Shown: piece after piece, positions 6,001 to 9,000 of the stretch
Position numbering within the stretch: position 1 is the first letter of the stretch
How the letters are laid out: every line of letters begins with the position of its first letter
Program-made: the position numbers
Virus record (IMG/VR): IMGVR_UViG_2671180275_000011
DNA length: 11,394 bases
Reading direction: 5' to 3' (one strand)
From: a virus
Lineage: Duplodnaviria; Heunggongvirae; Uroviricota; Caudoviricetes

Positions 6001-9000
6001 GAAACCCGGTAGCCATGCTGGCAGTGTGTGCATCACTCGCCGGGCCGTTGCTGTGGCTGCTTGATGTGGACAGCGGCGGATTTCATTTCATGGGCGACAG
6101 TTCCAGCGGGAAAAGCGTGGGGGCGCTGGTGGCCTGTAGCGTATGGGGAGAACCCCGCAACTTTAAACGCAACTGGAACGCCACCAGCACCGGGCTTGAA
6201 GGGCTGGCGACCATGCGGAACGATACCGCGCTGATACTGGATGAAATTGGCGAAGCCCCGGCCAGAGATATTGGCGGGCTGATTTATCAGCTTGGCAACG
6301 GAACAGGCCGCCAGCGTGGCAAGGTGTCCGGCATGGCCCGCCCGGTCAACACATGGCGCACCATGATTATTTCCACAGGGGAAATGACCGTGGGTAAACA
6401 CATGGAAAGCGGTGGTCAGCGCATCAAGGCCGGGCAGGAAATGCGGTTACTGGATATTCCGGCACAGCGGCTTTACGGGGCGTTTGACTGCCTCCACGGA
6501 ATGGCACTACCCCACAACCCCGACAACGACACAGAACGCCGTGGAGCAGGCCGGAAATTTGCCGAAACGCTGCGCGGTAATGCGGCCACCCATTACGGCC
6601 ACGCCGGGCCGGAGTTTGTGCGCTGGCTGATTTCCCGCAATGAAAGTGACACCACCAGCACCGACAGCAACGGCCAGACGCTGGCGGATATGTACGCCAT
6701 ACTGCGCGAACAATTCCCCGTAAGCACCGGGCAGGAGGCGCGCGCCGCCGCGCGTTTCACACTGTGCGCACTGGCCGGTGAAATGGCGATAACTGCCGGG
6801 ATTCTGCCGTGGAAACAGGGCGAAGCACTGGAGGCGGTGAAAGCGATGTTTGCTGCGTGGTCGGACTATCGTGGCCGGGGGCAATCGGAGGACGTGAAAA
6901 TACTCCGGGCCGTCGCCGGGTTTATCGCCCGCCATGCCTCACGCTTTGAAGGGGGCAACACATACAGCGAACCAGTAAGCAACCGCGCCGGATGGTGGCG
7001 ACCGGGGAGCAACGGCGACCGGGTTTACTGGTTTTTACCGGAAGCACTATGTGAGGCGGCCAGCGGCTACGACCTGAAACGCATAGCGGCCAGTCTTGAT
7101 GATGCTGGCGCGATTGTTGACCGCGACACGGACGGGAAACGCCGATACACAAAACGCGTTTCCGTTAACGGGGAAAAACACCGCGTTTACGCCATCGACC
7201 AGAATGCATTGTTATTCGCAATTGATGAATAATTAACAAAAATTGCGTTTTTAAAAACTGAAAAAGTGGTGGGACTGGTGGGAACTGTGGGAACCGTAAA
7301 AATAAAACATATATAAATCAGTAAATAATAAAATCACCAGTATGATTATTGTTCGTTTTTGAGTGGGAACTCTGCGGGAACTGGTGGGAACCACAGAGAA
7401 CAAAAAATAACCGCCACGGTTCCCACAAAAAGCCACCGTGGGAACTGGTGGGAACCACTGAAAGCCGCGTGGTTCTAGGCGGTTCCCACAGTTCCCACCA
7501 GTCCCACCAACTTGCACAATATTACGCACGGCAAAAAACGCACCATAAAAACCCGGAAATCCCTTACGTGGCGCTGGATGCAAGGCAATTTCAGTGTGCA
7601 AAACGGGTTAAACAGCAAAACCACACAGAATAGCGAAAAGCCCAGCAATGGCGCGGCATGTGGAGCATTTACCAGTGAATCACGAATAACGCTTTTTAAG
7701 GGCAAAAATGCACTTTTTAGCGCACAAAATCACGCGAAGCCAGACGCGGCGCGGCTTACAGCCGTGTTTATATGCCTGATTACCGTTTTCTGGCGGCAAA
7801 AAAGAACACCGAAACACACGCGCAGCCCGCGCCACACAAGGGATACAGCGAAATGAGCACATCAGAACACGCAGAAATCACGAAAAAACACCATAAAACG
7901 CACGTTTTCAGCGATTCAGAACATCAGATTTATGCATAAGTTATTCAGCCTGCCGGATGCATTGTGTGAGTTTATCCGGGCATTACCTGCACCGGATTTA
8001 CAGGAAGCGCACCAGTCCGAAACATGGCCGGAAGACAACACCACCAGCAACGGCCAGACGCTGGCGGATATGTGCGCCCCGTCTGCGGCGTGGCTGGCTG
8101 CCCGTGATGCGTATATCAGCCACGTCATGACCTGCCCGCATTGTGCTACCAGCGGCGTTAAAAAACCGCGTCATTGCGCTGAGGGTGAACGACTACGGCA
8201 GAACTACGACCACACCAGATAACCACCACACCCCGGCGATTAATTCCGGGAACAGCCGGGAGAATGCGGGAAAAGGCGGGATTAATCCGGGAATAAACGG
8301 AAATAACCGGGATTTCGTGGGACTGCACCGCCATAAGGTGGGGTGCGGTCATTATTCCGCGACGTTTTCCCCGGCAAGAGCACACGCGGCGCGGGCTGCA
8401 TGGAATTTCAGGCCATGCCAGAAATGAACTTTTTCGCCCATTGTTACCCTGAATATGGTAAAAAATGCTCACCCATTGCCGGGCCATGAACAAAATCAGC
8501 CCCATTATGCATGGCGGCCACATACCACCAGCCACATCACAGAGCGCCATTGAATGCCAGAGAGTACACCACGAGCGCCATTTTAAAAACCGTTTCAAAG
8601 CACCATAAAATCGGCTTTTAGGCATTGTTTAAGAAAGCGTGTTTTTCAGACAGGCCGACCGACTGGCAGGATATGAGAAAGGCAACGTAATCAGCGTATC
8701 CGGCACGATGCAGGTAAGCCAGTGGACCGGACAGAACGGGGAAACGCGGCAGGGTTATCAGGTCATAGCGGACAGCATAATCAGTGCACGGGCGACGCGT
8801 CCAGGCGGGAGCAGACGCAGTACCACAGGCACACAGAGCAATCAGCCACCAGCGGGAAGTTATGACCCCTGCGGTGACAATATTCCGTTCTGAGGGGGTG
8901 AACGATGGTACATGACCGCATAGCGGAAGAACTGGAGTCGAAAGGCTTTTACCGGAGAGCGGCGGCGCGATGGGCCGAAGTGATGATGCTGGTGGAGACT

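Follow-up and report, generated by a model that had tools for sequence, protein, structure and literature searches.

A helically phased CGGGA array on a P4-like Escherichia coli island as a candidate mimic of the packaging region at Mu-type left ends

A row of short repeats, each about one helical turn from the next, stands in the non-coding DNA of a small Escherichia coli island, and the question that it raises is what it does there. We addressed this question in a stretch of 11,394 nucleotides from IMG/VR virus record IMGVR_UViG_2671180275_000011 (the window). The window represents a 10-kb integrative E. coli island, located between yicC and dinD and 100% identical to the genome of strain 2012EL-2448 (NZ_CP027586). 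The repeats, hereafter the CGGGA array, comprise eight units and occupy positions 8246-8324 of the + strand, beginning 24 bp past the stop codon of orf96 (7932-8222, + strand), a gene for a small conserved protein with a cysteine motif. We hypothesize, with a probability of about one half, that the array is a cis-acting packaging signal that mimics the pac region located between the sites L1 and L2 at the left end of Mu-type phages. The link to Mu-like left ends is not visible from the window alone, and comparative data were needed to reveal it.

The array reads CCGGGAACAG CCGGGAGAAT GCGGGAAAAG GCGGGATTAAT CCGGGAATAA ACGGAAATAA CCGGGATTTCG TGGGAC. Six of its units have an exact CGGGA core, all on the + strand, starting at 8247, 8257, 8267, 8277, 8288 and 8308, and five of these six fit SCGGGAW exactly. 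In the other two units, ACGGAAA (8297) and GTGGGAC (8318), the core is degenerate; the pattern across the array is (C/G/A)(C/T)GG(G)A(A/T/G/C), with a spacing of 10/10/10/11/(10+10)/11 bp. Tandem Repeats Finder calls the array with periods of 10 and 20. The initial annotation had described eight copies of (C/G)CGGGA(A/T) in 10-bp phase; the phasing of about 10 bp stands, whereas the count was generous. The phased array itself is beyond chance. When a chain was defined as identical 5-mers at 10-11 bp spacing with one skip permitted, the longest chain in the window had six members, while the maximum among 1000 simulated first-order Markov sequences was four; the window has 18 copies of SCGGGAW, where 7.7 ± 2.7 would be expected. 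The last origin iteron (7509) lies 737 bp away, in agreement with the earlier estimate of about 0.75 kb, and the general view of a cis-acting, non-coding array whose phasing suggests binding by an oligomeric protein also appears to be right.

Arrays of the same style are present at the left ends of Mu-like phages. Nucleotides 31-67 of Mu, which form the spacer between the transposase sites L1 and L2, read CCGGGAGGAC ATTGGATTAT TCGGGATCTG ATGGGATTAG, in the same strand sense as the island array. In Mu relatives whose transposase is about 70% identical, the GG(G)A cores keep their register while the spacers change. At least three exact GGGA motifs at 10-11 bp spacing were found in the left-end zone, 0.9-1.8 kb upstream of the transposase gene, at 13 of 49 distinct MuA-related loci; the same search on the opposite strand or inside gene A gave 0/49. 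These comparisons indicate that (C/T)GGGA(A/T) arrays in 10-bp phase are a conserved, strand-specific feature of Mu-like left ends. The phage array is located past the 3' end of the repressor gene, and no promoter is close to it. The pattern that defines a Mu-like spacer array, at least three to four NGGGAW units at 10-11 bp on the inward-reading strand, is also seen in the island array, which shares with the phage spacers a (C/T)GGGA(A/T) unit every 10 bp, at least four units running, and cores that are kept while spacers are free. The two differ in that the island has eight units rather than four to five, carries no transposase and shows no above-chance alignment to Mu; in addition, no L1- or L2-like sites were seen when the flanks of the island array were read against the L1 of Mu and of Sp18-type phages. 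Without such flanks, and with Mor the only Mu-like one among nine island proteins compared, the island array would at most work like a left-end spacer and is not itself a member of that class.

A scan of IMG/VR with CGGGA-N5-CGGGA-N5-CGGGA, made with no assumption about context, returned at least 120 loci. Among the matches listed, dozens are imperfect arrays of four to six units in the same style, many arrays are found no more than a few hundred bp from a contig end, and Mu-like proteins are encoded at 25 of the 120 listed loci (tblastn with Mu proteins). Clustering of the neighbouring open reading frames (ORFs) at the listed loci yielded a recurrent set of c-type repressor, Ner, a MuA-type transposase of about 710 aa and Mor; a second group, consisting of F, portal and TerL, corresponds to the KS10-type layout, with head genes at the left end. 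BLAST of either the CGGGA array or the second array described below against the phage collection gave chance matches only, because the repeats are too short and too degenerate.

The window holds two arrays, one of each of two types, and all island arrays are oriented like the island genes. The second array, of GTGAAA type (9830-9895, + strand), has about seven units at 9-12 bp spacing and lies 3' of the mor gene. Its phage counterpart resides in the same genome: NZ_CP027586 contains a complete Sp18-type Mu-like prophage, and its left end reads TGTAACCAGGTGAATCATTTGATACC (L1), then GGGTTTTAGTGAAAGGAGGTGAAATCACCTGTAAGATACTGAAATAAAACAGGTGAT, then L2, the spacer being a GTGAAA-type phased array. 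We scored alignments to phage left ends against shuffled sequences. The array of a Salmonella island (locus L027) aligned with the Sp18-type spacer over 44 columns with a score of 33 (shuffles 15 ± 2.1, maximum 23), and window positions 9824-9844 matched the same spacer at 19/21 bases with a score of 32 (shuffles 17 ± 2.6). For the CGGGA type, the array of a Lelliottia island (L030) scored 27 against Mu nt 44-66 (shuffles 15 ± 2.2). Thus, the sister array type aligns directly with an Sp18-type spacer, and we propose that the GTGAAA array at 9830-9895 is a putative mimic of the pac site of an Sp18-type Mu-like phage.

The left ends of Sp18-type phages fetched from IMG/VR are informative about what the spacer does. 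L1 and the spacer are nearly invariant among them while the repressors are 26-100% identical, and divergence starts just past the spacer. Since the spacer is kept despite repressor divergence, it would be an element of end function rather than of immunity. In the complete E. coli genomes, Sp18-type prophages occur in 248 of 5426, and head genes at least 95% identical to those of Mu occur in 44. At least four array-carrying genomes have the Sp18-type prophage (2012EL-2448, 2015C-3121, JNEC-KY174 and JNEC-KY203), a co-occurrence that is suggestive rather than statistical because some of these strains are probably related. When nine island proteins were compared with Mu and the Sp18-type prophage by tblastn, Mor was the only match; it is 48% identical to the Mor-family protein of the Sp18-type prophage and 31% identical to Mu C.

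Comparison among islands revealed that the array is modular and independent of the type of integrase (Int), AlpA and helicase. In Salmonella islands that share the GTGGGAAC origin iterons with the window and closely resemble it in their ori region, the position of the CGGGA array is taken by a GTGAAA array, reading GTGAAAGAAG GTGGAATTAC GTGAAATCCG GTGAAAT directly past the orf96 stop codon; array type is therefore independent of the initiator and origin type, and no covariation with ori iteron type was found across the relatives compared. In Tenebrionibacter and Lelliottia islands, whose orf96 is about 54% identical, CGGGA/TGGGA arrays occupy the matching position with their cores in phase and their spacers different. 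The helicase-ori-orf96 module is conserved as far as Pseudomonas and soil metagenomes, and no array was found 3' of orf96 in the Pseudomonas or metagenomic relatives examined, which makes the array an accessory cassette outside the replication core. By the same comparison, orf96 appears to belong with the helicase and origin and not with the array cassette.

The integration genes vary in the same manner. In islands inserted at tRNA-Ile, as found in strain cq9 and in many enterotoxigenic E. coli strains from pigs, the integrase is 26% identical to that of the window and the AlpA-like protein is unrelated (23%), and yet window regions 2716-3320 and 3760-8647, array included, are 96-97% identical. 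One of these islands (L036; E. coli cq9, NZ_CP031546 4446906-4455200) joins the replication-orf96-array module to unrelated integrase, hypothetical and AlpA-like genes at tRNA-Ile, indicating modular exchange of the integration module. Because such islands keep the array, in a 97%-identical module, beside an unrelated Int and AlpA, both an Int arm site and a site for AlpA/excisionase are ruled out, and the binding by AlpA that the initial annotation had considered, like binding by Int, can be set aside. No CGGGA repeats are present near attL, and the array is 0.3-1.9 kb away from the attR core. As array types swap among islands regardless of integration and replication specificity, we consider the array a modular cis site.

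Mu packages its DNA by the headful and takes along host DNA, about 100 bp at the left end and about 1.5 kb at the right end (PMC7350765). In our model, the island would excise and replicate from its own DUF927-helicase origin during lytic growth of a Mu-type helper. The helper terminase, composed of small gp27 and large gp28, would bind the helically phased (C/T)GGGA(A/T) units; a ring-shaped small subunit that wraps DNA is the usual picture of the small terminase subunit (TerS), and we extend it to this array. Terminase would then cut about 100 bp upstream and, by the headful rule, fill heads rightwards with multimers of the 10-kb island; from an integrated copy, flanking host genes would be packed instead. 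The arrays would be exchangeable cassettes, the CGGGA type for Mu-type helpers and the GTGAAA type for Sp18-type helpers. In this model terminase is the presumed array-binding protein, the Mu array the candidate pac determinant, and the island a putatively mobilised element. For the CGGGA array, the connection to Mu rests on the unit pattern, phase and strand, on the interchange with GTGAAA cassettes, which match better, and on arrays of related islands that occupy the same place and likewise show a better match.

Several observations weigh against this packaging role. The window CGGGA array scored 22 against the Mu left end, below the shuffle maximum of 24, so that it resembles the Mu array only in unit pattern, phasing, strand and position, and its exact sequence had no match in IMG/VR viral contigs. 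Within E. coli, conservation of the array cores does not visibly exceed that of the non-coding DNA on either side. The packaging genes of Mu and of Sp18-type phages are about 70% identical in DNA, yet their arrays differ greatly. The co-occurrence of island and prophage comes largely from related Shiga-toxin-producing strains, and genes for terminase, capsid or size redirection are absent from the island. We take Mu pac to lie at about nt 32-58 (Groenen & van de Putte 1985; Harel et al. 1990), a position that our literature search did not confirm. Finally, there is the protein HU. It bends the Mu L1-L2 spacer in the transpososome without sequence specificity, so the phage array might serve transposition and not packaging, in which case the island copies would have to be explained otherwise, for instance as a decoy or a sensor.

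The alternative that survives best, although we consider it unlikely, is precisely of this kind: the array may be a platform for another helper protein, acting either as a sensor that switches on island genes, as Cox boxes do, or as a decoy that titrates a factor binding Mu ends. P4 provides a parallel in its 'ori type 2 repeats', a row of three tandem 10-bp units of TTAAAG type, presumably P2 Cox boxes that activate PLL. Both cases have at least three tandem 10-bp units on a satellite, with a helper-encoded protein as the reader or supposed reader; the P4 repeats differ in their sequence, in lying upstream of a promoter and in acting in transcription. The match of the arrays to phage end sequences would suit a platform of this type as well, and in Salmonella islands the array precedes a Mor-like gene by about 90 bp. 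Its setting elsewhere argues otherwise, since the phage array is past the 3' end of the repressor gene, several islands have just about 300 bp of non-coding DNA and attR after the array, and no sigma-70-like promoter is predicted beside the window array. To our knowledge, only terminase, transposase and HU act on the Mu spacer.

It is improbable, to a somewhat greater degree, that the array is intrinsically bent or bendable DNA, or a tandem repeat made by slippage, without a sequence-specific partner and with at most a structural role. The alternation of G-rich and A/T-rich halves at each helical turn would favour bending, as would the non-specific action of HU on the phage spacer; slippage changes unit number, and the lack of extra core conservation in E. 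coli would be expected of such DNA. What a purely structural array would not account for is that cores stay in phase while spacers diverge, both among islands and among Mu relatives, that the two sequence types each match their own phage lineage, and that orientation is strictly conserved.

A further candidate partner is the island's own initiator. The array could be a second set of iterons bound by the DUF927 helicase, either a cis element like the crr of P4 or a copy-number array such as incA of P1 or incC of F. The array unit does resemble iterons found at the origins of this helicase family: CCGGGAAC, which serves as ori iteron in Brenneria and Pseudomonas relatives, is identical to the first array unit, one GCGGGAAC copy is found in the island's own ori at 7373, the P4 iteron is GGTGAACA, the spacing is similar (9-11 bp), and a repeat finder puts array and ori copies into one family. 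The first two of these points are the reason why we keep initiator binding as a minor rival, to which we give only a slim chance. Compared with the GTGGGAAC iteron, the array motif SCGGGAW lacks the conserved 3' 'AC' in 7 of 8 units, and both the Salmonella islands, with their own array type beside the same iterons, and the distant relatives that have no array at all speak against a replication function.

Position leads to the same view. The crr of P4 is built from ori iterons and is located directly 3' of alpha, and the place abutting the helicase gene is occupied in the island by the main iteron cluster, so that the positional counterpart of crr is the GTGGGAAC cluster and not the CGGGA array. 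Both elements have a second repeat cluster on the att-proximal side of the replication genes; the island array, unlike crr, is non-iteron, stands one gene away, and is exchangeable or absent in relatives. A crr-type cis region, the crr-like element that had been suggested initially, is thus not supported, as the array repeats differ from the ori iterons and fail to travel with helicase and origin specificity. Iterons were compared at window 7267-7509, L006 7840-8110, L008-L014, L089 and P4 (L252) 9310-9413, and they form a graded series from GTGGGAAC in enterics through CCGGGAAC in Brenneria and Pseudomonas and GGTGGAAC in an IMG/VR contig to GGTGAACA in P4. Scans anchored on the helicase gave few informative loci.

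The remaining readings can be dealt with briefly. The island has no Par-like gene, neither for a centromere-binding protein nor for a partition NTPase, and the partition site also entertained at first is not sustained. A promoter element was rejected since no sigma-70-like site adjoins the array. Rfam has no match within 8200-8650, and a small RNA acting as a CsrA sponge (repeated GGA plus hairpin) was dropped because GTGAAA arrays have no GGA and the counterparts in phages are located at ends that are not transcribed. That the array belongs to a translated gene is a negligible possibility: reading frames are open on both strands (8143-8427, +; 8158-8625, -), but neither has a Pfam match, the region carries no annotated gene in 31/31 complete E. 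coli RefSeq genomes that have the array, and relatives disrupt both frames, strain NCCP 13963 (L002) by having exactly one 10-bp unit fewer and others by 1-2 bp indels 3' of the array, so the array is non-coding and the translations are low-complexity repeat artefacts, as had been claimed from the start.

How does the proposed packaging signal compare with known satellite systems? That satellites carry a packaging site of their helper is already known: cos-type Staphylococcus aureus pathogenicity islands (SaPIs) and phage-inducible chromosomal islands (PICIs) carry the helper cos site, as does P4, and the PICI-like element (PLE) of Vibrio carries a pac site like that of ICP1. The P4 cos region has no CGGGA-type array. 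The island resembles these systems in being a small integrative element that lacks terminase, has a putative copy of a helper recognition site and shares its host genome with a matching helper prophage. It differs in that the proposed helper is a transposable headful phage of Mu type, the signal is a phased array, two cassettes occur in one family, and genes for capsid-size redirection are absent. A preprint on PLE and ICP1 describes a satellite that manipulates the packaging motor of its helper (bioRxiv 10.1101/2024.04.22.590561). A PICI exploiting a Mu-like helper has been demonstrated experimentally with PmCI172 of Pasteurella (PMC6092414), so that the use of a Mu-like phage by a chromosomal island has a precedent; PmCI172 belongs to another element family, and small capsids are seen with it. 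As far as our literature search showed, there is no earlier description of a pac mimic for Mu-type phages on a P4-like island, of the exchange of array-type cassettes, or of how general the phased array is at Mu-like left ends.

Phased arrays were also observed in phages of other kinds. Unrelated phages have 10-bp phased CGGGAC or GTGAAA arrays near contig ends or just 5' of HNH/TerS/TerL genes; these include contigs with TerL and portal genes (L085, L080, L084 and L105), contigs with HNH and TerS genes (L171 and L187), and L186. Phased short repeats may thus be a widespread form of terminase recognition site. Another contig, L089 (IMGVR_UViG_3300002520_000018), encodes Mu-like portal and F proteins (43-45% identical to those of Mu), an integrase, AlpA and a DUF927 helicase with GGTGGAAC iterons. 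It carries a 4-unit phased array with three exact CGGGA cores, located about 250 bp past the last iteron and 40 nt short of where the fetched stretch ends.

The rest of the island has P4-like traits, namely C4/isrK immunity RNAs, a primase with a helicase, and a P4-type integrase. The integrase gene (1-1272) is the leftmost, followed by a hypothetical gene, with an int-alpA RNA motif at 1279-1344 between int and this next gene; an AlpA-like helix-turn-helix protein is encoded at 2491-2697. The P4-type immunity RNA set is duplicated (2841-3069 and 3355-3559; C4 antisense RNA at 82 and 74 bits), together with isrK and c4-a1b1 targets and with Icd-like ORFs alongside. A toprim primase gene lies between these sets and the DUF927 helicase gene (5394-7232). 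Just 3' of the latter, the origin-type GTGGGAAC iteron cluster (7267-7509) has direct and inverted copies flanking an AT-rich stretch. The product of orf96, which accompanies DUF927 helicase and iterons from E. coli to Pseudomonas and soil metagenomes (L010-L014 and L340-L388), has the conserved C-terminal motif W..ARD.Y..H.M.C..C...HC..G..L...Y and may be a zinc-binding replication accessory protein. A very stable hairpin at 8316-8362 (+ strand; -25.8 kcal/mol, z -4.2) overlaps and directly follows the last unit of the CGGGA array. Its stem sequence differs among relatives, and it is nonetheless predicted in the relative L004; it is possibly the end of the orf96 transcript.

To the right of the CGGGA array are a truncated ssb gene, a frameshifted perC gene and the gene for a Mor/C-family transcription activator (9291-9698, + strand; Pfam Mor, E 3.7e-23). 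Two tRNA-like sequences (about 9960-10055 and 10081-10162) are located inside the island near attR, and both terminate in GGTTCGACCCCC(A/G)CCACCAGCA. RefSeq names the pair 'tRNA-OTHER' and 'tRNA-Tyr'; the second matches Rfam tRNA at 35 bits, over the gathering score, and ARAGORN found no tRNA anywhere in the window. A 'tRNA-OTHER' is also annotated in the Sp18-type prophage (L334 21122-21201), just past the F (head morphogenesis) gene. The att core is GTGTACATA-N2-CGTGTACATA, and attR is at the right end of the island. A 44-bp direct repeat (left copy 8575-8618, + strand; right copy 10179-10222) bounds the segment from truncated ssb through perC, mor and the GTGAAA array to the tRNA-like sequences. 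Strain FDAARGOS_1059 lacks 8618-10179, exactly the segment so bounded; strains of this kind indicate that the module is optional and that recombination between the 44-bp repeats adds or removes it. The motif (A)CACCATAAAA occurs four times (7539-7550, 7887-7898, 8599-8610 and 10206-10217): one copy belongs to the sole sigma-70-like promoter match of the region (8582-8611), one stands just 5' of orf96, and the last points outward just before the attR core.

The family of islands to which this one belongs is characterized by C4/isrK immunity RNAs, a toprim primase, a DUF927 helicase and the absence of structural genes. We propose tentatively, at somewhat less than even odds, that P4-like islands of E. 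coli, Salmonella and their relatives are satellites of Mu-type phages through exchangeable pac-mimic cassettes, each cassette addressing one Mu lineage, with two in the island studied here. Many small enterobacterial islands with integrase and primase have no structural genes and no known transfer route. If the proposal is true, an exchangeable pac mimic would explain how such islands spread, with Mu-type phages, common in Shiga-toxin-producing E. coli, as the helpers, and island transfer would become directly testable by simple deletions. It would also provide a sequence-level definition of the Mu-type packaging signal, in which the phased GGGA/GTGAAA array of the L1-L2 spacer would be the long-undefined terminase recognition element of Mu-type phages, conserved in transposable phages of many phyla. 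Such a definition would help to predict satellites and the lateral transduction of flanking genes (here dinD-ligB-spoT), and to design Mu-based delivery vectors.

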